From positions 1-43,883 of the forward strand of contig CAYMVN010000001.1 of assembly GCA_964394125.1 (NCBI GenBank): DNA of 43,883 nucleotides, read 5' to 3'. The position numbers were made by a program, and so were the translations under genes. This stretch comes from an uncultured Pseudomonadales bacterium. GTDB taxonomy: Bacteria; Patescibacteriota; Microgenomatia; UBA1400; PJMF01. Shown here piece after piece: positions 1 through 27,315 of the stretch (position 1 is the first letter of the stretch; the number at the start of each line of letters is the position of its first letter). Below the pieces are notes generated by a model. It made no database searches. It had not been told where the DNA came from and saw only the letters and a program-made list of their open reading frames with translations.

Positions 1-742
1 AGTAAAAAAACAGATTAGTATCGCCGCACTCGTTCTCACTGCAGGACTCTGCTTGTTTTTTGTGCCGCCTGTTCTGGCGGAACGGCTCGAGTCTGGTTCC
101 TACGTTATTCAGTTTGGTAACTTCAATATTACTGCAGGAGAAAAGTCGAGTGCTTCATACAATGTCACTGATACTGTTGGACAAACAGGGGCCGGCCCGT
201 ATGGTCAGTACGGCGTGTCTGGCTACTTTGTTGGTGGCGGCTTTCAGTATATCTATCAAATTGACCAGTTCCGATTTCGAATTTCTAAAACACTCATTGC
301 ACTTGGATCGATGGTTCCGGATATTCACTATACTGACTCGCACACACTACAGGTAACAACTCGAGGAGCTGGTGGGTATAAAGTGTATGTTTTTGAAGAG
401 CACCCACTCCGTCATGAGAACGGACTCTACGACATCCCAAACACTACTTGTGATGGCGGAACCTGCACCTACACGACAGCCCAAACCTGGACCAATCAAT
501 CTATCCCCGGCTTTGGATTTTCGGTAACCGGCAACGACGTAGCAACTGACTTCGTGAACTCAACATACTATCGCAGCTTTGCCAACAAAGAGCTCGGTAA
601 CCCTATGCAAATTGTCATGAGCTCAACGAGTGGTGGAATCAACAGAACAGCAACAGTCACGTATAAAGCAGGTATTTCTGCGACACAAGCAGCCGGAGAC
701 TACAGTACGCCAATTGTATATGTTGCTGTACCAGGATATTAG
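1..742 (+). CDS. Secreted beta-rich surface subunit with a WxL-like or fimbrial-subunit-like C-terminal strand; 5' end at or just beyond the window edge
   Basis: The ORF track starts at an internal TTG (53). The same frame is open back to nt 2 and reads VKKQISIAALVLTAGLCLFFVPPVLA, a Sec-type signal peptide, so the real start lies at or beyond the window edge. The mature part is G/T/Y/N-rich and ends TQAAGDYSTPIVYVAVPGY. It shares ordered blocks with the C-terminal part of the 1760..3349 product: GGYKVYV/GGYSVTA, GFGFSV/GFAYTL, YRSFAN..PMQIV/FRSFAD..PQIV, and the terminal G-x-Y...aromatic strand. Confidence 0.7.
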   Translation, partial: VKKQISIAALVLTAGLCLFFVPPVLAERLESGSYVIQFGNFNITAGEKSSASYNVTDTVGQTGAGPYGQYGVSGYFVGGGFQYIYQIDQFRFRISKTLIALGSMVPDIHYTDSHTLQVTTRGAGGYKVYVFEEHPLRHENGLYDIPNTTCDGGTCTYTTAQTWTNQSIPGFGFSVTGNDVATDFVNSTYYRSFANKELGNPMQIVMSSTSGGINRTATVTYKAGISATQAAGDYSTPIVYVAVPGY

Positions 743-745
743 CGC

Positions 746-1720
746 ATGAATAAAATACTTCTCATAACACTGCTTGCAACCACATTTTTTGCACGACCAG
801 TACTTGTAGCGGCACAGGCAATTGATGCAGTAACCAGTGAGAGCAGCGAACTAGGTGTTTTTCCTGCAACAGCATTCTTAAAAATCCAACAAGGTGGCAG
901 TGCGACACATACCATTACCCTCGAGAACACCAGTGCACACACAATTCGTGTCGCTCCAAGAATTGTTGACTTTCGCAGTGACAATCGAACTGGGACGCCG
1001 CTTTTGACCGAATCAACGACATTTCAATATCTTGAGGGCATCACTGACCCAAACAAACTCGACACACTGCTCTTGCAACCAAAAGAAAAAGCTGCCCTGA
1101 AACTTGCCTTCACGATTCCTTCAAACGCACCTTCAAAAGAATACCCGCTGACTATTCTTTTTGAGACAACACCTGATGTACCACAGCCAGTGGTTGGTGC
1201 CGGAGCTGGAATTAAAACGGTTATTGGGAGTAACCTCGTTGTTCTCATCACCAATACTCAAGAAGCCCCCACCCTACTCTCAGTTTCTCAGTTGAAGACC
1301 GCCTCAGTACATGACTCATTTGCAGGTATTTCTTTTACGCCTGTTGTTAAGAATTCTTCGTTTGCTTCAAGCGTTGCTTCATCAAGTGCACAGATTAAAA
1401 ATTGGCGAGGAAAAGTTGTACAGACATTTGAAGGTATGCCTGTAGTTGTCCTTGGAGCGTCATCGAGAGAGATTCAGACACTTCCAAGTAACTCCGATAC
1501 ACCGGTTGCATTCGAGTACAAACCGTCATACCTGCTCGGTTGGTACACACTTGAGTTTACAGTTCAGACAGGACTGAGTACGGCTCCCGATTCAGTGACT
1601 GCTACTCGCATTGTTTTTGCTCTTCCTTTTGCAGTTATAGCAGTTTTATTTTCAGTAATTGCATCACTTTTATACTTTGGATACAAGAAAGGTCTCTTTA
1701 CACACTTGCGAAGTATCTAG
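746..1720 (+). CDS. Membrane-anchored cell-surface protein, DUF916/DUF3324-like (CscA-type) architecture
   Basis: The ATG lies 3 nt after the upstream stop. It has a signal peptide (MNKILLITLLATTFFARPVLVAAQA), two beta-sandwich-like halves, and a C-terminal TM helix with KKG stop-transfer (FAVIAVLFSVIASLLYFGYKKG). It is a clear paralogue of 3358..4470: LKIQQGGSATHTITLENTS vs LVISPGEKKQIKVEVINTS, LLLQPKEKAALKLAFTIP vs HTLQPRQKASITVLIDVP, IKNWRGKVV vs IKNLFGKQV. The family name comes from remembered family patterns, not a search. Confidence 0.7.
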   Translation: MNKILLITLLATTFFARPVLVAAQAIDAVTSESSELGVFPATAFLKIQQGGSATHTITLENTSAHTIRVAPRIVDFRSDNRTGTPLLTESTTFQYLEGITDPNKLDTLLLQPKEKAALKLAFTIPSNAPSKEYPLTILFETTPDVPQPVVGAGAGIKTVIGSNLVVLITNTQEAPTLLSVSQLKTASVHDSFAGISFTPVVKNSSFASSVASSSAQIKNWRGKVVQTFEGMPVVVLGASSREIQTLPSNSDTPVAFEYKPSYLLGWYTLEFTVQTGLSTAPDSVTATRIVFALPFAVIAVLFSVIASLLYFGYKKGLFTHLRSI

Positions 1721-1759
1721 GAGTCGTACTACACTGAGTCTTGTAGTTACGTTATCTAC

Positions 1760-3349
1760 ATGAAACAAACTGTCCGAACAGCTTTACTAATTAGTGTTTT
1801 TGTTGCTGCTTCGATAGTTGCTGGTAAGTTTTCTAGTAAGCAGTACTCTGCAAGTTTAACGAATGTATCCGTTACACTTTCTAACTCTCGCCCTTCTTTC
1901 CGTGGGGCACTGGGCTCAGGAAATAGCGTTAGTTCAACTATTGCCTACATCAATACCACCCCCAACGCATACCCTTCAACTGCTTCATCGCAGCTCGTAC
2001 AAGGAGATGTCGTCTCTATTGGGAACGGTGCGGCGATGACAAACTTTACCGTTGATGACTCGTACAACAACACTCTGAACCCCTTCCGGAGTGAAGATAA
2101 AGTCTACTTGAGCGCGCCACTCGGTGCTGGTCAGGCAGATTCAGGTGATGATGTTATCTCCACTCAGTCTGCGAGCCTGACAGTGAAGCTAACAACTGCC
2201 AATGCAATCGCGAACGGCCGCTTCCGAGTATTGGTGCCAGCACTTACTTCAAACACGAGTGCTGCAGATGGTCTTCCTGATAGTGGTTACTTCGACTTTA
2301 CCTCGAGTGCACCCTCAGGAACCACCGTGGTCTGCCCAGACATGCACACCACTACCTACGACTTTGACAATGCTATTGCTTCAACCGCCTCTGCCATAAC
2401 ACTAACGGGCACACTTGCGGGCGACTATCACTCTTTCGAGTGTGCTTACTCTGGCACCGGTGCAAGTGGAACCGTGTTTGATGGCACTACAAATGATCCA
2501 ATTGTTATCTCTAACCTCATCAACCCTGCCCTCATACCAAACCATCAGCAAGGTGTTGCTGATACCTACAAAGTGGTTATTCAACAGTACGATTCAAGCC
2601 TAGCTGTAGTAGACACTACAACGGTTGCTATTGGCGTCATTGAAGCCGTTAAAATCACCGCTTTAGTACAACCACAGATCAGCTTTAAGATCTTAGGTGT
2701 TGGCAGCGGAACGGACGTGTGTGGCTTGTCTACGTCAGTTTCTACTTCTGCAGCTCTTGTGCCATTTGGGGACTTGCTCCTGGGCACCTTTACCCAAGCA
2801 GCTCAGGGCTTTTCTGTTAACACCAATGCTTCTGGCGGCTACTCTGTAACTGCAATCGAGAATGATCAGCTCAGCAGAGATGGTATGGCCTGCCCCGATG
2901 GATCACTGCCGAACACTGACTGTATTCCTGATAGCCAGGGAGATGCAACCAACATTACCGACTTTGACGCTGGTGTTTGGGAAAGCACGGCAACAAAAGG
3001 ATTTGCCTATACACTCGATAACAAAAACAGCTTGAGTTCTCTCTACATGCCATTCCAACACGATACGAATACCTCAGGTACGAATACTGGTGCTGGCACC
3101 GTTGATGATGGCTCAACCTACACCTGTACTGCAAATTCCACTTCAAGTTGTTCCGGAGGCCAGCTCTGCCACTGCTTTAGAAGTTTTGCAGATACAGCCA
3201 ACTCAGAAACGCCACAGATAGTTGCAAAAGCAACGATACCAGTAGAGAATAGTAATTACTACTTATGCTATCGAGCTGTTATTTCGACTACTCAGGCATC
3301 TGGCTACTACGAAAATTATGTAACATATACAGCTACGGCTAATTTTTAA
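1760..3349 (+). CDS. Large secreted beta-rich surface protein; C-terminal domain homologous to the 1..742 product (WxL-like)
   Basis: A 529-aa ORF with an N-terminal hydrophobic signal/anchor (MKQTVRTALLISVFVAASIVAG). Composition is S/T/G/N-rich with several Cys pairs. The C-terminal ~230 aa repeats the ordered motif series of the first gene and ends TTQASGYYENYVTYTATANF. Confidence 0.7.
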   Translation: MKQTVRTALLISVFVAASIVAGKFSSKQYSASLTNVSVTLSNSRPSFRGALGSGNSVSSTIAYINTTPNAYPSTASSQLVQGDVVSIGNGAAMTNFTVDDSYNNTLNPFRSEDKVYLSAPLGAGQADSGDDVISTQSASLTVKLTTANAIANGRFRVLVPALTSNTSAADGLPDSGYFDFTSSAPSGTTVVCPDMHTTTYDFDNAIASTASAITLTGTLAGDYHSFECAYSGTGASGTVFDGTTNDPIVISNLINPALIPNHQQGVADTYKVVIQQYDSSLAVVDTTTVAIGVIEAVKITALVQPQISFKILGVGSGTDVCGLSTSVSTSAALVPFGDLLLGTFTQAAQGFSVNTNASGGYSVTAIENDQLSRDGMACPDGSLPNTDCIPDSQGDATNITDFDAGVWESTATKGFAYTLDNKNSLSSLYMPFQHDTNTSGTNTGAGTVDDGSTYTCTANSTSSCSGGQLCHCFRSFADTANSETPQIVAKATIPVENSNYYLCYRAVISTTQASGYYENYVTYTATANF

Positions 3350-3357
3350 GGATAGAC

Positions 3358-4470
3358 ATGAACACACCTGCCCGTGTATCAAGAATTATAGTTTCAAGTT
3401 TCGTTTTGGGGTCACTCCTCGTAACGCCATCTGCGTATGTTGCGCACGTTTTTGCTCAAGAGCAAACGGCTCAACCAATTCTGACATCGGAGCCGTCCCC
3501 ACCAGTTCCAGTAGCTATTCAACCTCCTTCTGTTGCTGCACAGCAGAGCCTATCCCTCACCGCGACACCACTGCGCTATGGCGATGATGACACACTCGTA
3601 ATCAGCCCTGGTGAAAAAAAGCAGATCAAAGTTGAAGTCATTAACACCAGTGATGTTCCATTAACAGTCGTTAGTACTGCACGTGACTTTATCGTTGAAG
3701 ATGGTGAAACGCCAGTTCCTCTCGAGAGTGGTGTCGGTGACAACCGGTGGAGTCTTGCTTCGTGGCTCGTACTTACCCCCAATCAGCACACGCTACAGCC
3801 TAGACAAAAAGCAAGCATTACGGTTCTGATTGATGTACCAGCAGATGCGCTCCCAGGTGGACACTATGCAATGGTGAGTCATCAGCCATCGCTATCAAGT
3901 GCAAAAGGCACAGAGGGTAAAGCAGCCGGCATCAATCAACGAGTTGGAACGCTCCTGTATGTGCGCGTTGCCGGGCCAATAAATGAGTCAGCCAACATTC
4001 GCAACTTCACCATCCCTAAGTACAGTGAGTTCGGGCCAGTGCCCTACTCTTTTACCATTGATAACCTATCTGATATTCATATTCGGCCACAGATCGGTAT
4101 TTCTATAAAGAATCTGTTTGGGAAACAAGTTGCGCTTTTGCAACCAGAAGCAAAAAACATCTTTCCACTCAGCAACCGTTCTTATTCTGGAAAGTGGGAA
4201 CAGATCTGGGGATACGGCTACTACCATGCTGACTTAGTTGTTAGTTACGGCGCGCAAGGTGATGTCGTCATTGCAAAGACAGCATTCTGGTTAATTCCAA
4301 TTAAGCTAGTGCTCGCCCTCTTTATTATGTTGCTCACTGCTGTTGCGGCAGGTATCTCAATTCGCAGACACCTCAAGCACCGCAAACAAGATCAGAATGC
4401 TCGTATTGCAGAGTTAGAGGCTAAGCTGAATGAGGCTCAAGGCCAAGATCTCAAGCAATATGAGGAGTAA
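3358..4470 (+). CDS. Membrane-anchored cell-surface protein, DUF916/DUF3324-like (CscA-type), with a charged cytoplasmic tail
   Basis: A 370-aa ORF with AAGGA 6 nt upstream of the ATG and a signal peptide. It has the pattern L.I.PGE...I.V.V.N.S....V, then DVPADALPGGHYAMV, a second beta domain, a TM helix (LVLALFIMLLTAVAAGISI), and an RRHLKHRKQ plus coiled-coil-like tail. It is a paralogue of 746..1720. Confidence 0.7.
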   Translation: MNTPARVSRIIVSSFVLGSLLVTPSAYVAHVFAQEQTAQPILTSEPSPPVPVAIQPPSVAAQQSLSLTATPLRYGDDDTLVISPGEKKQIKVEVINTSDVPLTVVSTARDFIVEDGETPVPLESGVGDNRWSLASWLVLTPNQHTLQPRQKASITVLIDVPADALPGGHYAMVSHQPSLSSAKGTEGKAAGINQRVGTLLYVRVAGPINESANIRNFTIPKYSEFGPVPYSFTIDNLSDIHIRPQIGISIKNLFGKQVALLQPEAKNIFPLSNRSYSGKWEQIWGYGYYHADLVVSYGAQGDVVIAKTAFWLIPIKLVLALFIMLLTAVAAGISIRRHLKHRKQDQNARIAELEAKLNEAQGQDLKQYEE

Positions 4471-6383
4471 TGAAACGCTTTGCACTCTACTTACTTGGCT
4501 GTTTAGTGGTACTCGCAGCACACCTTCCTGGGTTCATTATTCGAGCTGAAGATACTGGTATCTTACCTGGTGAAACCTATACTCAGCCAAAAACAAGAAC
4601 CACACAGGTAACAGCGGGTGTTCATGATAATGAGCCGCCCAGCACGCCGCTACTCATTGCTCCGGCTGATACTGCTATTCTTGCTACGAATACACCGACT
4701 TTTGTCTGGCAAGCTGCGACTGACAATATTGCGCTCAGTCACTATAGCCTCGTTCTCGATGGCACAGTGCTGTACTCGAGTATCCCACTCTCAGATACAA
4801 CAAATAGCCAGTTTACCCTCACCTACTCGAGCACAACGCATGAGTATAGCCTTGTTCCAAAAGAGGCACTTACTGAAGGTGAACACTCGTGGAGTATTAT
4901 CGCCTTCGATGTCTACGATAACCAGACAAGCTCTGTAACCTGGAAGTTTACTGTTGATACAGTTGCTCCCGTCTTTACCATTTCCACCGTCGATACACTC
5001 AAGGTCACTATCACAACGCAAGATCTCAGCACCATTCCTGAGACAGCACTGGCAGTCACCGTTGCGCAGCCGCTACTTTCAGGAACTGGAGAAGCTGGCA
5101 GCACAGTTCACCTCACGGTGCGCACGGCAAATGCTCCCGACCAAGTTTTTACCTTCACAATTGCTGCGAATGGGACTTGGGAACAAAAAATTGATACAAT
5201 TCCTAGAGATCAATTGATTCATCTTGATTTTATTATTACAGATAGCGCTGGAAACATCAGTGCGCTCGAAGATGTCCCGCTTATCCTCAAGAGTGTACAA
5301 ATTGTTATTCCGCTGCCTCCAGAGATACCGATACTTCCTCCAGAAGTAAGCATCCCGGTTATTAGTGCAGTAGAAATTAAAGAGAAGATCGTCTCAAGCA
5401 GCATTCTCTATGCGCCGCCAACTATTCAACAACTGGCCACCACCATTGGTCTAGTGCGCACTATCCCAGGCACACAAAAAATTGACTGGACGTTCCTCGC
5501 CTATATGAGCCTATGTACCCTTGGGCTCCACCTGGTGCTCAAGGTGTGTATCCTGATGCCACGATATACAGAGCTTGGCTGGTTTGGATTTTTGGATATC
5601 CTCAGGGTACTAGGTCTAGCCTGGGATGCACGACCACAAGGTATCGTTATCGACTCAAAAACACAGGGAGCAGTGCCCTTCTGCAAAATTAGTATCTCAG
5701 GGCAGCAAAAAAATAAAACACCACTGCACAAAAGCATCGTTACAAATAAACAAGGAGTCTTCTTTAAGACAGAGCTCCCTGAGGGAGAGTATGTCTATAC
5801 GGTTGTCGAAGAAGGCTTCGTCTTCCCCACTCTAACGCAACACCCACTCCACCTTGACTCAAACCAGTACTACCAAGGCAGCACCTGTACCGTGAGCGAT
5901 GATGCGCGACTCCCCGGGATAACTATTCCTGTTGATTCTTCTAGCAAGCCACGCACACCTTCACTTGCTCGGCGGATTCTGCAGAAACCGCTCCTGAACA
6001 CATCAGGAGTGGCTGTGAACTTACTTCTTGTGCTTGTAGCACCCTCACTGCTGAACGCTGCGGCTCTGAGCTTCTACTGTCTGCTCTACCTCACTGTGCT
6101 CGCACGGAGCCGGAAAAAGAAGAAACAGTACACCTTCAGTGATACACACATGTTACAGAAAGAGAACTCGGTAGTGTACCTGTACTCCCCTCAGAAAGAG
6201 CTCCTCGCTGTGCAGCAGACTTCAAAAGATGGCAGCTGTTTCTTTGAGCGACACGACACCTACACCATTGAGTACGTGGACACCACACACACCCTGCAAG
6301 AAGACCAAAGCGTAACGACAACAAGTAGTGAAGCTGAAGTGCTCCGCACCGAGCCTGCTCCCCACACCGTGAACTTCGCCTAG
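4470..6383 (+). CDS. Polytopic surface protein with N-terminal Ig-like domains and a carboxypeptidase-regulatory-like beta-sandwich
   Basis: The start overlaps the upstream stop (TAATG), suggesting translational coupling. It has a signal peptide (LLGCLVVLAAHLPGFIIRA). Ig-like repeats follow (EPPSTPLLIAPADTAILATNTPTFVWQAATDN..YSLVLDG; LSGTGEAGSTVHLTV). After two or three hydrophobic helices comes GIVIDSKTQGAVPFCKISISG...TNKQGVFFKTELPEGEYVYTV, a CarboxypepD_reg-type pattern, then further TM helices near the C-terminus. Confidence 0.6.
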   Translation: MKRFALYLLGCLVVLAAHLPGFIIRAEDTGILPGETYTQPKTRTTQVTAGVHDNEPPSTPLLIAPADTAILATNTPTFVWQAATDNIALSHYSLVLDGTVLYSSIPLSDTTNSQFTLTYSSTTHEYSLVPKEALTEGEHSWSIIAFDVYDNQTSSVTWKFTVDTVAPVFTISTVDTLKVTITTQDLSTIPETALAVTVAQPLLSGTGEAGSTVHLTVRTANAPDQVFTFTIAANGTWEQKIDTIPRDQLIHLDFIITDSAGNISALEDVPLILKSVQIVIPLPPEIPILPPEVSIPVISAVEIKEKIVSSSILYAPPTIQQLATTIGLVRTIPGTQKIDWTFLAYMSLCTLGLHLVLKVCILMPRYTELGWFGFLDILRVLGLAWDARPQGIVIDSKTQGAVPFCKISISGQQKNKTPLHKSIVTNKQGVFFKTELPEGEYVYTVVEEGFVFPTLTQHPLHLDSNQYYQGSTCTVSDDARLPGITIPVDSSSKPRTPSLARRILQKPLLNTSGVAVNLLLVLVAPSLLNAAALSFYCLLYLTVLARSRKKKKQYTFSDTHMLQKENSVVYLYSPQKELLAVQQTSKDGSCFFERHDTYTIEYVDTTHTLQEDQSVTTTSSEAEVLRTEPAPHTVNFA

Positions 6384-8040: not shown

Positions 8041-11000
8041 ATGACTGCCCAAGAAGTGTATCTCACAAGCGTAAACAAGCTTTTTTCAACATTTTTGTTG
8101 TCTCTTGATCTGACCGCTGAAGAGAAGAAACATGCTGAAGCACTATTTGTACAGCTACTTTCTCGTCTCGCTGCGAACGCTTCCACTGCATCGGTCGCAG
8201 AGTTCCTGAATGGGCAAAAGGGAGCAGCTCGAGAGATCTCAGCGGCATACGCTAGTGTGCAACAGTTTGTCGGCAGCGTCCCGCTCTCCCAGAGTAAAAT
8301 TCTACTCCATGAATATGTATTAGCACTCACTAGCGGAGACTGCTCAAATGCCACCATAAGGAATTATCGCAGTGATATCAACCAATTTTTACATTTCACC
8401 AATGAAGACCAGCTGGCAAAGACACTAACAAAACAAAAAGTCCTCGAGTTCATCCGTGCACAGAAGTCAGCTCAGCTCTCGGCGGCCACCGTCAAGAGAA
8501 AGTTAGTCAGCTTAGCACAGTTTGGGCTGTGGCTTGAATCCATCGGCGCGCTGCCGCTGGGTAGCTGCAGCTGGCTCGTAGAGCTCAGCCATACAGCACA
8601 TGACACAGTCACAGAGCCTGCCAAGCAGCCTGTCGAAGAGAAGCTTCCAGTACATAAGAAGCGACTCCGCTTTCCGCTTGCTAGTCTTGCCCCAGCACTC
8701 TTTGCTCAAAAACACGAACGAAAAACAAACTCAGGTCAAGAGTACTCTGAGCAGATAAAAAGAAATGTACGGTTACTACAAAGTACCTTACAAAAAAGAT
8801 CCAGCTCATTTTTTTCTCGATACGCCAATCTGGCGATGATACTGCTCTTCCTACTGTCATTTTCCTACTTTGGATACAAACAGTTATTCATCACGCCTGA
8901 CAAACCATTAGCATTCCCCTCGACACTAACTCGCCCAAATCGAACACTTTCTTTCCAGGGAAGATTAACTGATACAGCACAAAATCCTATCACTGCAGCG
9001 ACAAACTTTAGATTCAAATTGTTTGATTCTGGCCCAAGTACCGGAAGTGGTACTCAGTTGTGGGATTCTGGTGTGTGTAGCGTTACTCCAGATCAAGATG
9101 GTATCTTTTCTACCGGCTTAGGCTCAGACTGTGGCTCTGAGATTGCCTCATCAGTTTTCAGTGAGAATGCCAATGTCTGGCTTGAAGTAACGGTCGCTTC
9201 TGAGACACTCTCTCCTCGGCAAAGTATCAAGAGTGTTGCCTACGCGCTCAACTCTGAAACACTGCAGGGCTTCCCACCAGCTGATCCGGCAACAGCAAAC
9301 ACAGTACTCGTTATGAACAGTAGTGGCGAAGTTGTGCTGGGAAGTGCGACACCTAAAATTAAGGCTTCGAGTACTTCTCTTACTCTAGAAGGCACAACGC
9401 TCACCATGCAAGCTACCAGTGGCTCAAACGGGAATGTCGTTCTTGACCCTGATGGAACTGGTATTGTTATCGCCAAAGACTACATCGCTGCACCAGGAGC
9501 AACGCTCTCTGCAACCTATGCTGGTGGTACAGCACTCGTCACTAAAGGCGGACCCACTGGCACAGCAGACATTCAACAGTGGCAGAATAGCGCAGGAACT
9601 GCTCTCAGTGTAGTGAATGCTTCGGGTAATTTTGGTATTGGCACTTCAAGTCCTGGAATGAAACTCGATGTAGTGGGAGGCACAGCGAGAGTTGTATCTA
9701 GTGGCACTCCACTGGCTACTAGTTATGATCTCTCAATTCAAAACCCGGCGAGTAGTCAAACATGGTTAGAAATCTTAAATAATGGCGGAACAAATAAGGG
9801 TGCTTTCTTTGGTATGTGGAACGACTCATTCCAGCTGTGGAACTATCAAGCTGGTGATATCTCTTTCTATACAAATACGTCTGCATCGAATGGAACTGAA
9901 CGATTACGAATCGAGAATAACGGTAATATTGCGGTTGGCACAACAGGCACTGCCAACTTCTTACTTGATGTCAACGGAACTGTCGGCCCACACGTTGATA
10001 GTAGCTACAATCTGGGATCTTTAACCTATGCATGGGCTAATATATATGGCGATGCGTTGTACCAGAATGGCTATCAAGTCTGTGACAGTAGTGGCAACTG
10101 CCCGAGCGCTGGATACTGGAGACAGTTAAATGGCGCACTCTCCCCAATGAATGACACCGTTGATCTGCTCATCGGAGCCAGTGCTACAACTTCCGCGAAG
10201 TTTGCCTTCATGAACGTAAACTCTGGCACACCAACTGCAAGTATCTCAGGAAACTTAGCAGTTGCAGTACCAACAGGCGCAAATCCAGCAACTACCTATA
10301 CTGCACTCAACGGTGGCAGTATTAATTTCCAAACATCTGTCGGTGGTCCAAGTGGCGCAAGCTCTGGACTCTTCATTAAGAATGATGGCAATATCGGAAT
10401 TGGCTCTGTCAGTCCTGCAGCAAAGCTTGATGTCGCTGGTACGATCAGAAACAACTCATATACTGCTTTTGGTGCTGATACCGGTTCTGCACAGTGGGGA
10501 CTAAACTCTGCACGAGGTATTAATGTTATACATACTGCTGCCCCCGCTGCAGGGACTGGCTCAGTTGGTATCCGTTCTGAAATCACCCGAACTTCAGATG
10601 GCACCGGCAGCACAATCAATGCTGCCTACTATGGACGCCCCCTCATCAATGCTTCTGGCTTAACCGTTGATGAGAATGCTACATACTATGCAGCCAATGG
10701 CTCTATAACTGCTGGTACTATGACAAATCAATATGGTTTGTATGTAGCGGGGCTTTCTGGTGCAACAAATAACTATGCTGTGTACACCGCAAGTACTACC
10801 AAGTCATATTTTGGTGGCAATGTTGGTATCGGTACAACAAATCCTGCTAACTTTAAATTGCAACTCACGGGTGATATTGGGCCCACCACTACTGCTACCT
10901 ATAGCTTGGGCTCAGCTACCTATAAGTGGAATAATATCTACGGGACAACTATCTACCAGGGTGCGAACCAAGTTTGTGACACGAGTGGAAACTGTGGAAG

Positions 11001-14000
11001 CGGCAGCATCTGGGCCAACACTGCTAATGTATACCATCCGTATAATGCGAATGCCACAGTTGCTGACCTCGTTATTGGTGGCAACTCCACTGCCAGTGCT
11101 GACTTTAGGGTGACGGGCTTAGGCAACGGTTCAACTGACCTCGCTGGTTACACCTATGGTAGACGCTTCCTTGATATTGACTCGACTAACTATTATGTAG
11201 AGCCAGGCAACACAACAACTGCAGGTGCGTTTGCCAGTAATGTCGGAATCGGCACCACCACCCCCGACTCGCTCCTACATGCCTACTCAAATACGACTGG
11301 TGCATCAACAGTACACGGCAAGTTTGAAAACATAAGTGCGACAGGAAGAGCTCAAGCAGTTGTCTCCAGTGGCACCTACCCAAATAACTTCTTTGCACTT
11401 ATGACACACGGAGCAAGTTTTGCTTCAGATAACTACTTGAGTGATTCCACAAATGATGCTGGTCTTGGCGTCTTACTTGGGCAAGGCTCACAGATGACGA
11501 AGTTTGCTGTTGGAACATACAACAGCACTCCGCTCTCTTTCTTCACTGGCAATACTGAACGCATGTACATTTCTAGCACCGGTAATGTTGGGATCGGGAC
11601 AACAAATCCATCAAGCTTCAAGCTAGAGTTAGCTGGTAACGTCGGCCCCACCACAACTGCAACGTATGACCTCGGCTCAGCTTCACTCAAGTGGAACAAC
11701 ATCTACGGTACAACTATATATCAGGGAGCAAACCAAGTCTGTGATCTTGGGGGAAACTGTGGCCTCGGACTCTGGGAGAACAACAGCAATGTCTTCAACC
11801 CTAAAAATCAGTATGCGTCTATTGTTGACCTAGTAGTTGGCGGCAACTCCACCGCCAGTGCCGACTTCAGGGTGACTGGTCTTGGCAATGGCTCGACAGA
11901 CCTCGCTGGTTACACCTACGGCAGACGCTTCACTGATATTGATGCAACAGGCTATTACGTTGAACCAGGAAACGTCACAACCGCAGGGTTATTTGCTGGC
12001 AACATTGGTGTCGGCACTACAGGCCCTCTTGCAACTGTTGATATCAGAGGGAATGTATACCTGAATGACGGGTCTGCTGGGGCCCCTGCATTCAGCTTCA
12101 ACGCAGATACGAATACAGGGTTCTACCGTCAAGCTAGCGACTTAATTTCATTTGTTGCCAATGGACAGAACGCACTTAATGTTGATGGCTCCACTGGTAC
12201 AGGAAGACTGATGGTTGGAAATGGATATCCTGTCTCACGCTTACAACTGAACGATGATACTGGCACTTCTGCTTCAGGACTTACCCTGGGAAGTACAAGC
12301 CCTATTTCTCTCTACCGCTCAGCTGCAAGTATGTTGGCAATCACCGGTGGTAATGTAGGAATTGGAGAAACAAACCCTGCAAACTTCAAGTTACAACTAC
12401 TGGGAGACATTGGACCGACCACAACTGCTACCTATAACTTGGGCTCGGCTACCTATAAGTGGAACAACATCTACGGTACAACTATCTACCAGGGTGCGAA
12501 CCAAGTCTGTGACATGAGTAACAACTGTGGAACAACGCTTTGGGAGAACAACAGTAATGTCATTAATCCACGAAATCAGTATGCCGCTGTTACTGATCTC
12601 ATCATCGGCGGCAACTCCACTGCCAGTGCTGACTTTAGAGTAACAGGTCTTGGCAATGGTTCAACCGACCTCGCTGGTTACACCTACGGCAGACGCTTCC
12701 TTGATATTGACTCAACTGGCTATTATGTTGAACCGGGAAACATATTCACAGCAGGCTTATTTGCAGGTAATGTTGGAGTTGGTACCACAAACGCAGATAC
12801 AACATTGAAGGTATACAATAGTTCGGCACCAACATTCCAAGTCGCTACTTCTACTACAGCAAATGTCGGATTGTACTACGAAGGCAGTGGAAATGATTTA
12901 TATCTTGGTGGAGACTCTTCTCAAGATGGTAACTTGTACATAAAGAATCTGTCTGGAACCACAACCATTGCGCTGAATGCAGGGAGTGCCACTCATAGTT
13001 ATATCAATAGTGGAGCTAACGTAGGTATTGGAACAACCAACCCCGCTAACTTTAAGCTGCAAGTTGCAGGAGGTGTCGGCCCAACGGTAACCGCAACCTA
13101 TGATCTCGGCTCAGCTACCTATAAGTGGAACAACATCTATGGCACAACTATCTACCAAGGTGCGAACCAAGTCTGTGATACGAGTAATAACTGTGGAACG
13201 CCGCTGTGGGAAAACAATAGCAATGCCTTCAATCCTCGGAATGAGTATGCCTCAATTGCTGATATCGTTGTCGGAGGGAACTCTACCGCCAGTGCTGACT
13301 TTAGAGTAACAGGTCTTGGCAATGGCTCAACCAATCTTGCAGGCTACACCTACGGCAGACGCTTCCTTGACATTGACTCAACTGGCTATTATGTTGAACC
13401 AGGAAATACTTCGATAGCTGGTGCGTTTGCTGGAAACGTTGGTATCGGTACAACAAACCCCGCTGGTTTACTGGAAGTTAAGAGCCCAAATGCCAACTAC
13501 ACCTTTACCACAAGCTCAACGAGTGGCTACACTACCAACTTCCTCATGGATGACACAGGGCTAAGAATTGGTCACAACAGTAGCTCTCGTGATATTGAGT
13601 TCCAGACATCTTCTACCACACGAATGACAATTCTTGGTGGTGGCAATGTTGGTATTGGTACTACCAGCCCGAATAATTTGTTTGAAGTTGCTGCATCTGA
13701 TACCGGTAATACATTCCTCAGTAGCGCGAGTGTTAGAGTTACAAATACGAACTCTGCTGCTTTTGGCAGAATGCAGAGTTTAACCTTTGGTACTGCTGGA
13801 AATTCTAGTTATATTGGTGCTGGTATCGCTGGCATCTACGACAACTGGAATGTTACCAATGGAGCAGGTCATACCCTCGCTTTTTTCACTAAAGACTCAT
13901 CTATTGAGGCTACTCCTTCAGAAAAAATGAGAATTAATAAATCTGGAAACCTAGGCATTGGAACCACTTCACCTGCGGCAAAAATTGAGGTGTATGGAGC

Positions 14001-17000
14001 TACTGAAGGAATTAGAATTACTGGTTCAGGAACAACTGGCGATAGTTCTACTGCTTATCTCACGTTTTACGACTCAAACGGCTCAACAAGAAGAGGTTTT
14101 GTTGGTGATGGGGCAACTAGTAATGATGATATTCACCTCAAAGCAGATACAGGAGATATTCACATTGGAGATTCTAGTAGTGGCACAGTTTTGAACTTAA
14201 GTGGTGGAAATGTCAGTATTGGCACCACTTCAAGTACATTAGGCAAATTAACAGTCATGGGAACAAAAGTACTTGATGGAGCACAGGTTTTTACACAATC
14301 TGTTGCAGATGATACTGCCTACAGTTCCTCTCCTATTGCTGGTATTAGATTTATAACAAAATATAATACTGCTGGTGGACTTGCTGGATTGGGTGGTATA
14401 AATGTGGGTAAAGAAAATACAACAGATGGCGACTACGCATCATACTTAACACTTACCACTCGTACAAATGGATCCTCAATTGCTGAGCGACTGCGCATTG
14501 ATAGTTCTGGAAACGTCAGTATTGGAACAACCTCATCAGCAGCTAAGTTATATACCTACGATGCTGCCGATAATACCATCATTACCGCCGGATACTCAGG
14601 TGCCCGAACGAATCCTCTCTTTTTGGCTACAACAACAACTTCATCAGTTGCTCCAACTGGCTTTGATTTTTATAGTTGGTATAGTGCTTGGGGACCAGTC
14701 TCTGGAGGAATCCGTGGCTCAAGCGGCTCTGGTACTTGGGAATCACAAATTTATGGCACACAGAAACTTGTTCTTAATGCAGGAGGATATAGCTCTAGTA
14801 CTGCTGATATTATGATTGATTTGGCAGGAAATGTGGGGATTGGTACAACATCACCTGGCTCAAAGCTTGACGTAGCTGGAGATATCCGACTCTCAAGTGG
14901 TAGCTCAATAAACAGTGCCGGCTCAGATGTCAGAATTCACACCAATAAAACAGATGATACGGCATACGAGTACTTCAGTTTCTACTCTGGTGCAAGCAGA
15001 CAAGGTATCATACTGTATGACGGTGCATGGACCGGCTGTTCAAACGTAACAGATGAGTTCTGTTTGAAGGCTGAAAATGGCAACCATCTAGCATTTTATA
15101 GTGAGAGTGGTAAAGATATTCGCTTAATACCAGGAGGAAACGTGGGTATTGGGACGACTTCAACTGTTGCAAAACTCACTGTGTATAGTAGTCTTACGGG
15201 TTCTGGAGCAAGCGAGACAATTTCTTCCAATACGTCACTTAGTACTGCCGCAACTGGAGATTATATGGGGTATTGGCTCAACATGAACGCGATTACCGCT
15301 TCATCGGGAACACAGGCACCAACAATGTATGGGCAATACAATACTATTTCAAGAAGCCTTACAGATAATTCAAGTGGCCAAAGTACTGTTTATGGTACAT
15401 ACAGCTCAGCCTCTCAGCTTGCTCTTACAAATAACGTTGGTTCAAAAGTAACGTATGGTGGATACTTTACAGCTACTGGGAACTCACTAGGAAATTCTTT
15501 TGCTATTGGAGTAGCGGCAGACGCGACTGGTACAGATACCTCATATGGTGTGTATACCGGTACTGTTACTGGCACTGATCCCTACTCAATATATACTTCT
15601 GGTACGACAAAAAGCTACTTTGGTGGAAACGTCGGTATTGGTGTTACCGGTCCAGCACAAAAGCTTGATGTGGCTGGTACAATCCAAACTGATCTTGTAG
15701 CATCAACCAATAGCTATGCGCTCTGTCACGAGAACAACGTCACTCTAACTAATCAAGACATTAAAGATTGTAGTGGTACACCAGCTGCTGACTACATGGA
15801 GTTCTATTCTGTGGACACCAACGTTACACCTGGAGACTTACTTGCCCCATCTACCACCTACATCACCACGAATGATGGAGATCAAATTACCAAGTTAACG
15901 AAAACAAACCAGGCCTATCAACGGACAACAATCGGCATAGCATCTGTCCCTGAAAATGCAGGAGACTTTAATAGTATCGGACGCAATATTAAAGATGAGG
16001 ATAACCCATTCCCTGTTGCGCTTAATGGTCGTGTTCTCGTTAAGTTTAGTTCTATAAATGGAACTATTCAACCTGGTGACTATGTAACTTCATCTGATAT
16101 TCCTGGTGTTGCAATGAAAGCAACCAATGCTGGCTGGGTAATCGGTAAAGCGATTGCTTCCTATGCGAACTCAGATACAAGTGCCGTTGGCACCGTCATG
16201 GTTTTCGTCAATTCTGGTTGGTACGACCCTTCCATCCAGTTCAACTCTGAGGGTGAATTGGTGATTAACTCTGCTGGACAAGATACATACACCGTCAGCC
16301 CAGTTGCTGGTTCTCCTCTACAAAATATTGTTGCAGGTGCTACGGCGGTGTTTGGTAAGATTCGCGCTGGCAGCGCCACAATCACCAGCATCACTACCGA
16401 GCAGCTCAATATTTCTGGTCAGAGTATTCAAGAGCTCATTGCCAGCATGATTGATGAGCGAATTGCCGGCTCTGCACTAGTTGCTTCACAGTCTGCGCAA
16501 CTCGAGAGTGTTGTTGCTACTTCAGCTTCAATTTCAGGTACTCTCTCCGCATCAAGAACATCATTGGGTGAACTCCTGGCAGAGACTGCGACAATCTCTG
16601 GCACGTTAACCACGACTGAACTGAACGTAACTGGTAGCTCTCGGCTAGCACAGATCACTGCTCAACAAGCAGTCCTTGAAAGACTCAAGGCAAACACGGC
16701 GGAGCTGTTTGATGCAACAATTTCTGGCACACTCTATGCCGAGAATATTGCGAATCTTGATGCAAAAATTGCTACAGCCATCCAAGAGCCAACCTTTATT
16801 GATGCTCTAACAGGCAACATCCCTTCTCCACCACCTGCTGCGAATCCGTTAACCGTGTACGATACCGTTGCGACAGCAGGCTACACCCCAGTAAACCCAG
16901 AGTTTTTTGCTGAAAATGAAGGTATTTCTCTAGTAAATGGTGATATTCTCCTCGACTCAGCTGCTGTGTTTGTACGCAAGTACTTACAAGTTAACGGACT

Positions 17001-17724
17001 CGCCTACATTACTGAAACACTCGGCGTAGGGACAAAGATAGTTGTGGGTAACACAACAAGCCTTTCTGATGGAGCACTCGCCTTCACCCCAATTCCTGGT
17101 CAAGAGAATGTTCTCAAGATTCAACCGTCTGGCAGTGGAAGTATCGAACTGTTGGCTGGTGTCATGACTATTCAAAATGGCCAAGTGACGATAACTGGAG
17201 ACATCACTGCAACGGGCAAAGTAAAAGCCTCAACGTTATTGACGAACCTCATTCAACCTGCCGACTTTGGAAATCCATTCCAGGTGCAAGTAGCAGGTAT
17301 CTCTACCGGTTCAGGAGAGCTTAAAAAATCACGATTCGAGATTATTAACGAGCTCGGTACCCCAGTGGCAACTATTTCAGCTGAAGGTAAAGCTAACTTT
17401 GCTGGTGGAATCGGCGTTGGTAGCCAAGAGCTGAGTGTCCCAACCGTCTCAAGTGGCAGCGCAGTTACCGTCACCGCCGAAAAATCTTCTGGAAAGTCAA
17501 AAATTCAGGCGGGAACACACGAAATTACCATCGAGTCTGAGCATATTTCAAGCGACTCGCTCATCTACGTTACCCCACTGGGCAGCACCCAGAATCAAGT
17601 GTTGTACGTAAAGTCACAAACAGCCGAAGATCCTGCTACTTCAGAACACGAAGGCAAGTTTGTTGTTGGTTTTGATGCTGCCGTTTCCAGTGATGTGTCG
17701 TTCAATTGGTGGATTGTTAACTAG
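8041..17724 (+). CDS. Giant (3227 aa) single-pass surface fibre protein: XerD-type core-binding (SAM-like) domain, TM helix, tail-fibre-like repeat ectodomain
   Basis: A single uninterrupted ORF; all overlapping ORFs are short shadows. Residues ~88-172 (nt 8302..8556) read YVLALTSGDCSNATIRNYRSDINQFLHF...LTKQKVLEFIRAQKSAQLSAATVKRKLVSLAQFGLWLESIGAL. This fits the tyrosine-recombinase N-terminal core-binding pattern, but no catalytic domain follows. The TM helix is YANLAMILLFLLSFSYFGYKQLF (8821..8889). The ectodomain starts LSFQGRLTD...NPIT....LWDSG....V..DGIFS..LG........VWLEVTV..E.LSPRQ.I.SV.YAL. It then carries 18 GN(V/I/L)(G/S)IGT...KL.V.G motifs, and ends in a coiled region and beta-rich terminus (...FNWWIVN). 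Confidence 0.9.
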   Translation: MTAQEVYLTSVNKLFSTFLLSLDLTAEEKKHAEALFVQLLSRLAANASTASVAEFLNGQKGAAREISAAYASVQQFVGSVPLSQSKILLHEYVLALTSGDCSNATIRNYRSDINQFLHFTNEDQLAKTLTKQKVLEFIRAQKSAQLSAATVKRKLVSLAQFGLWLESIGALPLGSCSWLVELSHTAHDTVTEPAKQPVEEKLPVHKKRLRFPLASLAPALFAQKHERKTNSGQEYSEQIKRNVRLLQSTLQKRSSSFFSRYANLAMILLFLLSFSYFGYKQLFITPDKPLAFPSTLTRPNRTLSFQGRLTDTAQNPITAATNFRFKLFDSGPSTGSGTQLWDSGVCSVTPDQDGIFSTGLGSDCGSEIASSVFSENANVWLEVTVASETLSPRQSIKSVAYALNSETLQGFPPADPATANTVLVMNSSGEVVLGSATPKIKASSTSLTLEGTTLTMQATSGSNGNVVLDPDGTGIVIAKDYIAAPGATLSATYAGGTALVTKGGPTGTADIQQWQNSAGTALSVVNASGNFGIGTSSPGMKLDVVGGTARVVSSGTPLATSYDLSIQNPASSQTWLEILNNGGTNKGAFFGMWNDSFQLWNYQAGDISFYTNTSASNGTERLRIENNGNIAVGTTGTANFLLDVNGTVGPHVDSSYNLGSLTYAWANIYGDALYQNGYQVCDSSGNCPSAGYWRQLNGALSPMNDTVDLLIGASATTSAKFAFMNVNSGTPTASISGNLAVAVPTGANPATTYTALNGGSINFQTSVGGPSGASSGLFIKNDGNIGIGSVSPAAKLDVAGTIRNNSYTAFGADTGSAQWGLNSARGINVIHTAAPAAGTGSVGIRSEITRTSDGTGSTINAAYYGRPLINASGLTVDENATYYAANGSITAGTMTNQYGLYVAGLSGATNNYAVYTASTTKSYFGGNVGIGTTNPANFKLQLTGDIGPTTTATYSLGSATYKWNNIYGTTIYQGANQVCDTSGNCGSGSIWANTANVYHPYNANATVADLVIGGNSTASADFRVTGLGNGSTDLAGYTYGRRFLDIDSTNYYVEPGNTTTAGAFASNVGIGTTTPDSLLHAYSNTTGASTVHGKFENISATGRAQAVVSSGTYPNNFFALMTHGASFASDNYLSDSTNDAGLGVLLGQGSQMTKFAVGTYNSTPLSFFTGNTERMYISSTGNVGIGTTNPSSFKLELAGNVGPTTTATYDLGSASLKWNNIYGTTIYQGANQVCDLGGNCGLGLWENNSNVFNPKNQYASIVDLVVGGNSTASADFRVTGLGNGSTDLAGYTYGRRFTDIDATGYYVEPGNVTTAGLFAGNIGVGTTGPLATVDIRGNVYLNDGSAGAPAFSFNADTNTGFYRQASDLISFVANGQNALNVDGSTGTGRLMVGNGYPVSRLQLNDDTGTSASGLTLGSTSPISLYRSAASMLAITGGNVGIGETNPANFKLQLLGDIGPTTTATYNLGSATYKWNNIYGTTIYQGANQVCDMSNNCGTTLWENNSNVINPRNQYAAVTDLIIGGNSTASADFRVTGLGNGSTDLAGYTYGRRFLDIDSTGYYVEPGNIFTAGLFAGNVGVGTTNADTTLKVYNSSAPTFQVATSTTANVGLYYEGSGNDLYLGGDSSQDGNLYIKNLSGTTTIALNAGSATHSYINSGANVGIGTTNPANFKLQVAGGVGPTVTATYDLGSATYKWNNIYGTTIYQGANQVCDTSNNCGTPLWENNSNAFNPRNEYASIADIVVGGNSTASADFRVTGLGNGSTNLAGYTYGRRFLDIDSTGYYVEPGNTSIAGAFAGNVGIGTTNPAGLLEVKSPNANYTFTTSSTSGYTTNFLMDDTGLRIGHNSSSRDIEFQTSSTTRMTILGGGNVGIGTTSPNNLFEVAASDTGNTFLSSASVRVTNTNSAAFGRMQSLTFGTAGNSSYIGAGIAGIYDNWNVTNGAGHTLAFFTKDSSIEATPSEKMRINKSGNLGIGTTSPAAKIEVYGATEGIRITGSGTTGDSSTAYLTFYDSNGSTRRGFVGDGATSNDDIHLKADTGDIHIGDSSSGTVLNLSGGNVSIGTTSSTLGKLTVMGTKVLDGAQVFTQSVADDTAYSSSPIAGIRFITKYNTAGGLAGLGGINVGKENTTDGDYASYLTLTTRTNGSSIAERLRIDSSGNVSIGTTSSAAKLYTYDAADNTIITAGYSGARTNPLFLATTTTSSVAPTGFDFYSWYSAWGPVSGGIRGSSGSGTWESQIYGTQKLVLNAGGYSSSTADIMIDLAGNVGIGTTSPGSKLDVAGDIRLSSGSSINSAGSDVRIHTNKTDDTAYEYFSFYSGASRQGIILYDGAWTGCSNVTDEFCLKAENGNHLAFYSESGKDIRLIPGGNVGIGTTSTVAKLTVYSSLTGSGASETISSNTSLSTAATGDYMGYWLNMNAITASSGTQAPTMYGQYNTISRSLTDNSSGQSTVYGTYSSASQLALTNNVGSKVTYGGYFTATGNSLGNSFAIGVAADATGTDTSYGVYTGTVTGTDPYSIYTSGTTKSYFGGNVGIGVTGPAQKLDVAGTIQTDLVASTNSYALCHENNVTLTNQDIKDCSGTPAADYMEFYSVDTNVTPGDLLAPSTTYITTNDGDQITKLTKTNQAYQRTTIGIASVPENAGDFNSIGRNIKDEDNPFPVALNGRVLVKFSSINGTIQPGDYVTSSDIPGVAMKATNAGWVIGKAIASYANSDTSAVGTVMVFVNSGWYDPSIQFNSEGELVINSAGQDTYTVSPVAGSPLQNIVAGATAVFGKIRAGSATITSITTEQLNISGQSIQELIASMIDERIAGSALVASQSAQLESVVATSASISGTLSASRTSLGELLAETATISGTLTTTELNVTGSSRLAQITAQQAVLERLKANTAELFDATISGTLYAENIANLDAKIATAIQEPTFIDALTGNIPSPPPAANPLTVYDTVATAGYTPVNPEFFAENEGISLVNGDILLDSAAVFVRKYLQVNGLAYITETLGVGTKIVVGNTTSLSDGALAFTPIPGQENVLKIQPSGSGSIELLAGVMTIQNGQVTITGDITATGKVKASTLLTNLIQPADFGNPFQVQVAGISTGSGELKKSRFEIINELGTPVATISAEGKANFAGGIGVGSQELSVPTVSSGSAVTVTAEKSSGKSKIQAGTHEITIESEHISSDSLIYVTPLGSTQNQVLYVKSQTAEDPATSEHEGKFVVGFDAAVSSDVSFNWWIVN
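10816..13455 (+). repeat. Four in-frame ~441-444-bp cassettes inside the giant gene (10816..11259, 11581..12021, 12349..12789, 13015..13455)
   Basis: Each cassette encodes GNVGIGTTNPANFKLQLTGDIGPTTTATY.LGSATYKWNNIYGTTIYQGANQVCD.S.NCG...NP.N.YA...D...GGNSTASADFRVTGLGNGSTDLAGYTYGRRFLDIDSTGYYVEPGN...AG.FAGNVG.GTT. Start-to-start spacings are 765, 768 and 666 bp, with non-homologous spacers. Identical DNA runs of 20-29 nt are shared, e.g. acaactatctaccagggtgcgaaccaagt and ggcaactccactgccagtgctgacttta. A diverged fifth copy lies at ~9922..10260. Confidence 0.9.
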
Positions 17725-26582: not shown

Positions 26583-27308
26583 TTAATCAATCAGCCGCGC
26601 GTAGCGGAAGTATCGTATTGGCGAGTTTAAGTACTTGCAGGTGTACAAGATGAGGTTTGCCGAGTAGTCAGTAATTTGACTCCCCTCGTCTTCTGCATAG
26701 ATTTCATATGTGTACTTTTTTTGTTCGTAGATAATCTCGATGGTATCTCCCGGGTGCGTTTCAGTGAGCGAGTAAAAAGAGTTCCGCTTACCAAAGTCTG
26801 TTTTCCACCACCACTTCCACCCATAGCGATGCGCAGCAATAATGGTTGGTTGTGTTGTATCTCCTGGCCGTCCAAAGTCTGGTACCATCCACGCGCCTTG
26901 TTCAAGCGCTTCATCTGAATTGGTAAGCGCTTGGGCCTGAGTATCCACACCGATAAGGGGAATACGAATTCTTGTTTCTATTGGCAGTGAACGGTCTTGC
27001 ACTCTGACTGGTGCAGGAACTGGTGTTGCGCTTGGGGCAGGTTCAGCAGCAACACTTTCTGGAGCAAGCGCAAAAACCTCGTCTTGTTGCGTATCTGTTG
27101 TTAACCGTGACCAAACTTCTGGAATAACAATACTGCCAATAATAAGTACTGTCGCAACAATGATACTAATGAGCAAAAATTGAGCACAGAGTCGGAGAAC
27201 CCGTGTGAGTGAGTACTTGGAACGTCTTTTTGCACCAACAAGCCGCTTACGAACAAGAGGAAAGTGCGTCTGCAGCAGTGTTCCCTGTGTTTCTAGAGTC
27301 AAGGTCAT
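26583..27308 (-). CDS. Sortase family transpeptidase
   Basis: It has a TM anchor (FLLISIIVATVLIIGSIVI), a catalytic His context (TIIAAHRYG), a Cys context (LILYTCKY, of the TLxTC type), and a downstream Arg (RYFRYARL). The ORF is open to 27347, but the ATG at 27308 (MTLTLETQG) sits 7 nt downstream of an extended -10 box. The upstream 13 codons are AT-rich promoter sequence. Confidence 0.8.
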   Translation of the reverse strand: MTLTLETQGTLLQTHFPLVRKRLVGAKRRSKYSLTRVLRLCAQFLLISIIVATVLIIGSIVIPEVWSRLTTDTQQDEVFALAPESVAAEPAPSATPVPAPVRVQDRSLPIETRIRIPLIGVDTQAQALTNSDEALEQGAWMVPDFGRPGDTTQPTIIAAHRYGWKWWWKTDFGKRNSFYSLTETHPGDTIEIIYEQKKYTYEIYAEDEGSQITDYSANLILYTCKYLNSPIRYFRYARLID

Positions 27309-27315
27309 GTTCTGT

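Follow-up and report, generated by a model that had tools for sequence, protein, structure and literature searches.

A probable Pam-type pilus operon of Patescibacteria with chaperones remotely related to DUF916/WxLIP proteins

The first 6,383 nucleotides of the window (the whole stretch of 43,883 nucleotides analyzed here, contig C1:1-43883 of a 1.08 Mb genome in 101 contigs that is 95% complete) very probably hold the larger part of a pilus operon of the Pam type, from a Microgenomatia-like member of Patescibacteria (candidate phyla radiation, CPR). According to the open reading frame (ORF) listing, five plus-strand genes, termed A, B, A′, B′, and C, span positions 2-6383, and they are predicted to encode a short pilin, a membrane-anchored chaperone, a two-domain pilin, a second chaperone, and a polytopic membrane protein, respectively. 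The gaps between neighbors are 3, 39, 8, and −1 nt, and the ORF coordinates thus agree with the original prediction, made from the DNA letters, of five co-directional and tightly packed genes. The Pam system itself is known from a 2026 preprint on Ca. Mycosynbacter amalyticus, in which the pilins PamA/B/E/T, the chaperones PamC/D, and the anchor PamR have been described (Troman et al., bioRxiv 2026, PMC13278184), and the window operon is a new, divergent member of it. The view that no module of this kind had been characterized in CPR bacteria is therefore outdated.

Predicted pilins A and A′

PamA and PamB are composed of an N-terminal β-sandwich, a single linker strand, and a truncated immunoglobulin (Ig)-like C-terminal domain, and they assemble by donor-strand exchange (PMC13278184). 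A two-domain layout of this sort, consisting of an N-terminal β-sandwich, then a linker strand, and lastly a C-terminal open barrel, fits A′; A is without the N-terminal sandwich. The features of the two pilins are as follows.

2..742, plus strand: A, predicted short Pam-type pilin of 246 amino acids (aa) (NF058581 match, A′ family profile, and conserved position)
218..262, plus strand: candidate donor (linker) strand of A, SGYFVGGGFQYIYQI, residues 73-87 (position, amphipathic pattern, and Pam model)
683..739, plus strand: C-terminal strand of A, TQAAGDYSTPIVYVAVPGY (read from the sequence; its motif occurs in 37/39 Pam-type pilins)
1760..3349, plus strand: A′, predicted two-domain Pam-type pilin (PamA-like) of 529 aa (AlphaFold2 model and family matches)
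2618..2668, plus strand: candidate donated linker strand of A′, TTVAIGVIEAVKITALV, residues 287-303 (inter-domain and conserved)
3290..3346, plus strand: C-terminal strand of A′, TQASGYYENYVTYTATANF (G515, Y517, A525, T526, and F529 invariant)

Family relations, like gene anatomy, folds, and conserved gene order, were obtained directly in this analysis. The NCBIfam model NF058581 (CPR_Pam_pilin_C), which has the Ca. Mycosynbacter amalyticus Pam pilus (PMC13278184) as its source, is covered in its entirety by A at 26.5 bits (E 5.5e-6), is weakly matched by A′ at 11 bits, and is matched by 32 of the 38 A′ homologs (best E 5e-8), the curated cut-off being 55 bits. A hidden Markov model (HMM) of the A′ family finds A at E 5e-14, and residues 95-246 of A align with residues 330-529 of A′ (BLASTP E 2e-6, 24% identity), which reveals a common C-terminal domain with the motifs GGY.V, GF.(F/Y), and RSFA...P.QIV in the same order in both proteins. 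Both also end in TQA(A/S)G.Y...(I/V).Y.A...(Y/F), and the shared domain, ordered motifs, and terminal strand that the original prediction had read from the letters are all borne out. The terminal motif is present in 37 of 39 Pam-type pilins, collected from the own genome and 24 CPR loci, with the tail consensus G-x-Y-x3-[IVL]-x-[YF]-x-A-x3-[FY] and an invariant Tyr at −13. Orthologs of A hold the same position in 10 loci, and more than 265 homologs of A′ were found, those that are named belonging to Woesebacteria, Pacebacteria, or Patescibacteria. A Pfam search with A and A′ gave no significant match, sequence searches of the PDB with A, A′, the A′ family profile, and C returned nothing useful, and nothing relevant, hence no phage signal, came from a search of PHROGs.

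In terms of anatomy, A has a signal peptide and an N-terminal extension of 67 aa that is conserved, and its acceptor domain is C-terminal (residues 96-246); in A′, an N-terminal β-sandwich region is connected by a linker to the acceptor domain at the C-terminus. The AlphaFold2 model of A′ (pLDDT 82) is all-β and two-part, being β-rich over residues 33-293 and having a C-terminal β domain that extends to residue 527. Both the model and the homolog alignment place conserved strands around residues 283-313, between the two domains, and G292, I294, E295, V297, and A301 are invariant in the 38 homologs; by analogy with the Pam structures, residues 287-303 are a candidate for the donated linker strand. 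Its counterpart in A, the candidate donated strand at residues 73-87, directly precedes the acceptor domain and is conserved across the A family. The whole A′ model gave weak multi-Ig matches in Foldseek, including integrin legs, CfaE, CfaB, Saf, and the TasA fiber, and no WxL chain was among them.

Several related proteins lie elsewhere in the genome. Residues 31-61 of A (window 92-184) carry a double motif that is strongly conserved, SGSY...(G)...SSASY...GQ, which could be assigned to no family and recurs, as S-x-(N/S)-Y, at the N-terminus of a 351-aa pilin on contig C22. This pilin is the last gene of a second Pam-like locus (C22:8511-13224) that also comprises a 367-aa pilin, adjacent chaperones of 341 and 304 aa, and a 208-aa ORF. 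In addition, an orphan paralog of A′ (524 aa; A′ family HMM E 2e-229) lies on the minus strand of contig C16 (C16:4858-6432) among housekeeping genes, with no adjacent chaperone.

The layout of the locus had initially been likened to that of WxL/csc loci in Firmicutes. The WxL/Elr pilus of Bacillota, encoded by the csc cluster, is built of the WxL pilins ElrC/D with the help of a DUF916/DUF3324 chaperone, ElrE or WxLIP (Sleutel et al., bioRxiv 10.64898/2026.10.17.759780; PDB 9i1y, 9i25). If the window carried a true member of this system, perhaps one transferred from Bacillota, A and A′ would be divergent WxL proteins and B and B′ would be DUF916/DUF3324 proteins. The operon logic is indeed the same, with a small and a large subunit and a partner anchored by a transmembrane (TM) segment, and the terminal strands share the spacing Y-x3-[LIV]-x-[W/Y]-x-[L/A], so that hhalign picks this very strand as the best local match between the pilin domain and WxL. 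However, that match reaches only E 0.036 over the last 20 columns, and spacing of the terminal strand alone, as compared in the sequences, is no evidence of homology: WxL tails read Y-x3-[LI]-x-W-x-L with equal spacing, whereas the terminal aromatic residue of Pam-type pilins is Tyr or Phe, not Trp. WxL (PF13731) finds no match in A, A′, the 38 homologs, or the genome, and a WxL HMM run against 499 ORFs of the 24 CPR loci found no pilin and no enrichment of pilins, which match the CPR-specific Pam model instead. Membership of A and A′ in the WxL-domain family was rejected on account of the missing profile signal and the confinement of the hhalign match to the terminal strand, and the earlier notion that this strand is a WxL motif comes down to a likeness in spacing.

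Predicted chaperones B and B′

PamC and PamD, whose C-terminal end bears a TM helix, are chaperones resembling PapD (PMC13278184), and B and B′ appear to be proteins of this type, with the following features.

746..1720, plus strand: B, predicted membrane-anchored two-domain chaperone (PamC/PamD type, WxLIP-like) of 324 aa (AlphaFold2 model and Foldseek)
1202..1252, plus strand: candidate chaperone donor strand of B, GAGIKTVIGSNLVVLIT, residues 153-169 (EfmWxLIP1 alignment; strand in the model)
1607..1684, plus strand: predicted C-terminal TM anchor of B, residues 288-313 (model helix 295-314; hydropathy 2.65)
3358..4470, plus strand: B′, predicted second membrane-anchored chaperone of 370 aa (HMM of B orthologs and weak N-terminal profile matches)
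3922..3975, plus strand: candidate chaperone donor strand of B′, AAGINQRVGTLLYVRVAG, residues 189-206 (aligned to residues 153-169 of B in the B/B′ BLASTP alignment)

The signal peptide, two β-sandwich domains, and C-terminal helix foreseen for B are all seen in its AlphaFold2 model (pLDDT 83; helix at residues 295-314), and B′ has a hydrophobic tail like that of B in the hydropathy profile, with a TM segment at residues 311-335 followed by a tail at residues 336-370. The two proteins are only 20% identical (BLASTP E 5e-4), yet when all 2188 ORFs of the genome are searched with an HMM built from B orthologs alone, B′ is detected at E 4e-7. By sequence comparison, they are real but distant paralogs; the paralogy claimed at the outset stands, whereas calling it clear was generous. 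The B′ lineage, unlike B, keeps a charged cytoplasmic coiled-coil tail after the TM segment (RIAELEAKL...DLKQYEE, in the window and in L005), which may be an end for cytoplasmic contact or signaling. In three CPR members of the chaperone family outside the window (P0274, P0276, and P0281; 579-602 aa), a full membrane domain of Lgt (prolipoprotein diacylglyceryl transferase) is fused N-terminally to the chaperone part (residues ~265-585).

Comparison of the B model with the PDB by Foldseek returned the WxLIP of E. faecium (9i1y/9i25; E 5e-10, TM-score on the target 0.49-0.54), CsuC (E 4e-9, 0.50-0.57), and CfaA (E 1.4e-8, 0.57-0.58), along with YadV and FimC, the five ranging in E from 5e-10 to 2.5e-7. 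The lowest E, 3.7e-10, belongs to RbmA of V. cholerae, and this match lends itself to a different interpretation, namely a non-filamentous surface complex in which A and A′ are unpolymerized single adhesins kept at the cell surface by B and B′, themselves RbmA/PamR-like membrane anchors or matrix scaffolds. PamR is itself described as an RbmA-like anchor with two fibronectin type III (FnIII) domains, a C-terminal TM helix, and an N-terminal strand (PMC13278184), and before 2026, WxLIP was viewed as a binding or anchoring protein (PMC10599100). Nevertheless, the RbmA alignments have TM-scores of 0.25-0.39 (0.34-0.39 on the target) with a root-mean-square deviation of 15-16 Å, and TM-scores rank WxLIP, CsuC, and CfaA (0.49-0.58) above them. 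Moreover, the chaperone family is homologous in sequence to WxLIP, whose relative ElrE is a proven chaperone with CsuC and CfaA among its own reported structural matches (10.64898/2026.10.17.759780), and the pilins possess the Pam acceptor domain together with a conserved inter-domain strand. A complex of single adhesins is regarded as very unlikely, and a Pam-type pilus as the preferred interpretation.

The kinship of the chaperones to WxLIP was examined with a profile of 47 family sequences, whose sole significant sequence match in the PDB is EfmWxLIP1 of E. faecium (E 1.4e-4, over the whole N-domain); classical chaperones in the PDB are not matched even at E 10. Likewise, DUF916 (PF06030, WxLIP_PGBD) is the Pfam family that matches the most members (10/47, best E 1.4e-4), while PapD_N and PapD_C match none of the 47. 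For direct comparison, eight DUF916/DUF3324 proteins were taken from plasmids of Lactococcus, lactobacilli, Enterococcus, and Listeria innocua, and signal peptides and TM helices were trimmed before hhalign was run, because the untrimmed value of E 1.5e-10 is partly due to signal peptides and was not relied on. The chaperone family aligns with this Bacillota WxLIP set at full length with E 1.1e-6 over 140 columns, and its N-domain with DUF916 at E 7e-8, as against 0.2-0.4 for reversed controls and 0.01-0.02 for FimC, YadV, and SfmC of K-12; the C-domain aligned with DUF3324 at E 0.016 over 19 columns, which is not significant. In the reverse direction, which is the cleanest of these tests, an HMM of the eight Bacillota proteins obtained 26 matches at E ≤ 5e-3 (best 2.7e-10) among the 499 ORFs of the 24 CPR loci. 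All 26 are members of the chaperone family, to which 48 of the 499 ORFs belong, and the HMM alignments cover both domains in a few other CPR chaperones. B and B′ of the window are not matched directly by this HMM; orthologs of B′ are, at E 2.9e-5 to 2.9e-3. Taken at the level of sequence profiles, these results support the chaperone family, mainly through its N-domain, as a remote homolog of Bacillota DUF916/WxLIP within the same superfamily, and they provide no tie to the classical PapD chaperones.

The DUF916/DUF3324 layout that the original prediction saw in B and B′ thus holds in part. A remote homology to WxLIP is supported by the profiles, but DUF916 stays below the Pfam cut-off (B′ 16.3 bits and best in the genome 20.6 bits, against 27.3), one N-terminal stretch of B′ is weakly matched both by PF06030 (E 0.01) and by PapD_N (PF00345; E 0.34), and the Pfam search found no match to DUF3324 (PF11797, WxLIP_HBD) in B or B′. 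The homology of the chaperones speaks for the Bacillota system. On the other side, a strict reading of the locus as WxL/csc fails by the refuting condition set in the original prediction, with no match to WxL or DUF3324 and none to DUF916 that reaches the Pfam cut-off, an LPxTG-type sorting signal is absent from the C-terminal ends of all contig C1 ORFs, so that the locus contains no LPxTG subunit, and presence in about half of the sampled Patescibacteria is unlike a recent transfer. True membership in the WxL/csc system is accordingly judged highly unlikely.

The PapD-like fold of B could equally bring to mind a classical chaperone-usher or SCPU-type fimbrial operon, as could the weak matches of the A′ model to CfaE, CfaB, and Saf and the resemblance of the terminal strand to the F strand of usher pilins. 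Against this, no usher (PF00577) was found in the 95%-complete genome, the best that PapD_N attains is the value given above for B′, SCPU matches neither A, A′, nor any of the 38 A′ homologs, and the chaperones are membrane-anchored. Given the lack of both an usher and a PapD profile relation, the classical system was rejected and is granted next to no probability.

Operon extent, conservation, and proposed assembly

The first base of the window is a contig end, and relatives indicate what precedes it. In two related genomes, an extra gene X, whose polytopic membrane protein product has a coiled-coil tail, stands before A, and the order is leuS (minus strand), X, A, B, A′, B′, C, a 252-aa gene (minus strand), and a giant tail-fiber-like gene. 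In the own genome, contig C91 (C91:1-2542) carries leuS and, next to it at the very start of the contig, X, which is cut off by the contig edge. Because X lies at the edge of C91 with leuS, this contig, when reverse-complemented, adjoins the first base of the window. The full operon order is therefore X-A-B-A′-B′-C, and its first gene and promoter fall in the assembly gap before the window. Downstream of the operon, a giant tail-fiber-like ORF of 3227 aa occupies 8041-17724, and it has a giant counterpart in the relatives as well.

The chaperone family is large, amounting to 2980 representative clusters at E ≤ 1e-3, the best 150 of these 2980 having been listed. Of 301 Patescibacteria genomes drawn evenly, 142 carry it, as do 115 of 248 genera, very often in two copies 2.1-2.6 kb apart. 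The order X-A-B-A′-B′ is found in 8 of 24 annotated loci, with C next in 5 of those 8. The pairing of subunit and partner genes, for which a survey of related genomes had been proposed at the outset, is thereby corroborated, the chaperone-pilin-chaperone order recurring across the phylum.

The last gene of the operon is conserved 3′ of B′ in L005, L007, L021, L023, and L057.

4470..6383, plus strand: C, predicted polytopic membrane protein of 637 aa (Pfam and hydropathy)

It carries a signal peptide and, at its N-terminus, the strand TRTTQVTAGV, and further has Ig-like domains, a linker rich in Pro, CarboxypepD_reg-like domains, and TM segments numbering at least 2-3 according to hydropathy; the Pfam matches are Big_13 Ig-like (E 3e-10) and CarboxypepD_reg (E 5e-4). 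By analogy with PamR, C may be a candidate base or anchor subunit, and this is the weakest step of the model. A giant plus-strand ORF of ~2455 aa on another contig of the same genome (C4:7395-14762) is similar to C (E 4e-15), the shared part probably being the Ig-like domains.

How the pilus might be assembled is suggested by analogy with the two 2026 preprints, from which strand exchange, the pairing of chaperones with pilins, and the roles of A and C are carried over. A and A′ would be exported via Sec, each with an incomplete Ig-like C-terminal acceptor domain that ends in the tail consensus given above, while B and B′, as PapD-like two-domain chaperones, would be held in the cytoplasmic membrane by their C-terminal helix. 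A strand of the chaperone N-domain would then fill the groove of the newly exported pilin. In B, the candidate is residues 153-169, a segment that aligns with GAQIKNRIAYNLAVVL of EfmWxLIP1, forms a strand in the model, and is numbered close to the donor strand of ElrE (141-152); in B′, it is residues 189-206, a candidate put forward from the alignment with B. The linker strand of the next pilin (candidates A′ 287-303 and A 73-87) would displace the chaperone strand in donor-strand exchange, and a non-covalent fiber could grow in this way with neither usher nor outer membrane. The PamA-like A′ would likely form the shaft, with A as a minor subunit, a tip, or an adaptor, and C may close the fiber at its base and fasten it to the membrane, possibly via the N-terminal strand of C. 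The early suggestion that a tethered Ig-fold partner serves in assembly, with a terminal strand like that of usher subunits, is in keeping with what the preprints report for Pam and WxL/Elr pili, and would by analogy apply here.

Several points weigh against a Pam-type pilus. Every match to NF058581, whether from A, A′, or the A′ homologs, falls under the curated cut-off, and no direct structural match to Pam was obtained, the solved Pam structures being seemingly absent from the PDB copies searched. RbmA, the lowest-E match of B, is the fold ascribed to the anchor PamR, so judging from the model, one of B and B′ could be the anchor rather than a chaperone. C does not have the architecture of PamR, as it is polytopic and carries CarboxypepD_reg-like domains. 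The count of conserved order is also biased, for the chaperone-pilin-chaperone core, although seen in most of 20 loci across the phylum, was counted in loci chosen for their paired chaperones. Finally, strand exchange and chaperone-pilin pairing are reasoned by analogy, and the organism is uncultured, with no filament seen.

Relation to known pili and significance

The window locus shares several features with the Pam pilus: the pilin A′ has two domains and a strand between them, the PapD-like chaperones, two in number, each carry a TM helix at the C-terminus, an usher is lacking, the bearer belongs to CPR, and a giant tail-fiber-like gene lies nearby. Homologs of Pam proteins have been reported in Saccharimonadia and Microgenomatia, with a tail-fiber-like protein in the neighborhood (PMC13278184). 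Differences are nonetheless considerable. The window sequences are very divergent and remain below the model cut-off, and the operon is simpler (X-A-B-A′-B′-C), with two pilins as opposed to at least 4 in M. amalyticus, and is led by a polytopic gene, X. The conserved 67-aa extension of the short pilin A is unlike the description of PamT, and the last gene encodes a polytopic protein with Ig and CarboxypepD_reg domains, whereas PamR is an RbmA-like single-pass protein.

With the WxL/Elr pilus, the window shares a homologous two-domain chaperone, at least in the N-domain, in which the partner protein bears the C-terminal TM anchor, as well as adjacent subunit and chaperone genes, a C-terminal module common to a small and a large subunit, a terminal strand spaced Y-x3-[LIV]-x-aromatic, a monoderm host, and the lack of an usher. 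In contrast, no profile test places the window pilins among WxL-domain proteins, the donor strand proposed here would be an inter-domain linker of the Pam type rather than the N-terminal extension used in WxL/Elr pili, the locus is without an LPxTG base subunit, and DUF3324 is undetectable in B and B′. Chaperone-usher pili (FimC/PapD, CsuC, and CfaA) are similar in having a chaperone with two Ig-like domains, an incomplete subunit fold that is completed by a donated strand, and a non-covalent fiber, but the window system has no usher, outer membrane, or free periplasmic chaperone, and bears no profile relation to PapD_N/PapD_C.

A link between the Pam chaperones and WxLIP was not found in the searchable literature, and neither of the 2026 preprints mentions the other system; each calls its own system exclusive to its own phylum (PMC13278184; 10.64898/2026.10.17.759780). 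The odds appear about even that the Pam pili of CPR bacteria and the WxL/Elr pili of Bacillota are two branches of one ancient superfamily of monoderm pili, assembled with membrane-anchored chaperones by donor-strand exchange, in which both the chaperone and the pilin acceptor domain, with its terminal strand Y-x3-[LIV]-x-[W/Y/F]-x-[L/A], would be of common ancestry. Within this proposal, the chaperone link is supported by the present comparisons, while the pilin link is unproven. The tie between the Pam chaperones and the DUF916/WxLIP proteins of lactic acid bacteria and enterococci suggests that usher-free assembly driven by membrane-tethered chaperones is an old trait shared by monoderms and not two inventions, and it also means that what is learned in Enterococcus, which is tractable, could inform studies of uncultured CPR bacteria.

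CPR bacteria lead an attached life on host cells, a contact thought to be made by thin pili. Being present in about half of the sampled genomes, this type of operon is among the most widespread surface systems of the phylum. For annotation, five genes otherwise listed as hypothetical gain a role, and the chaperone-pilin-chaperone order offers a simple marker of such loci.

Two minor observations concern the surroundings of the operon. A gene with a sortase domain (PF04203, E 4e-8) lies on the minus strand at 26583-27347, 20 kb from the pilus operon. The public records of the two closest relatives, L020 and L022 (CAZYNM010000002.1 and CAYVXV010000001.1), bear the title "uncultured Pseudomonadales bacterium", a label that is probably wrong, given that both are CPR-like in gene content and homologs.

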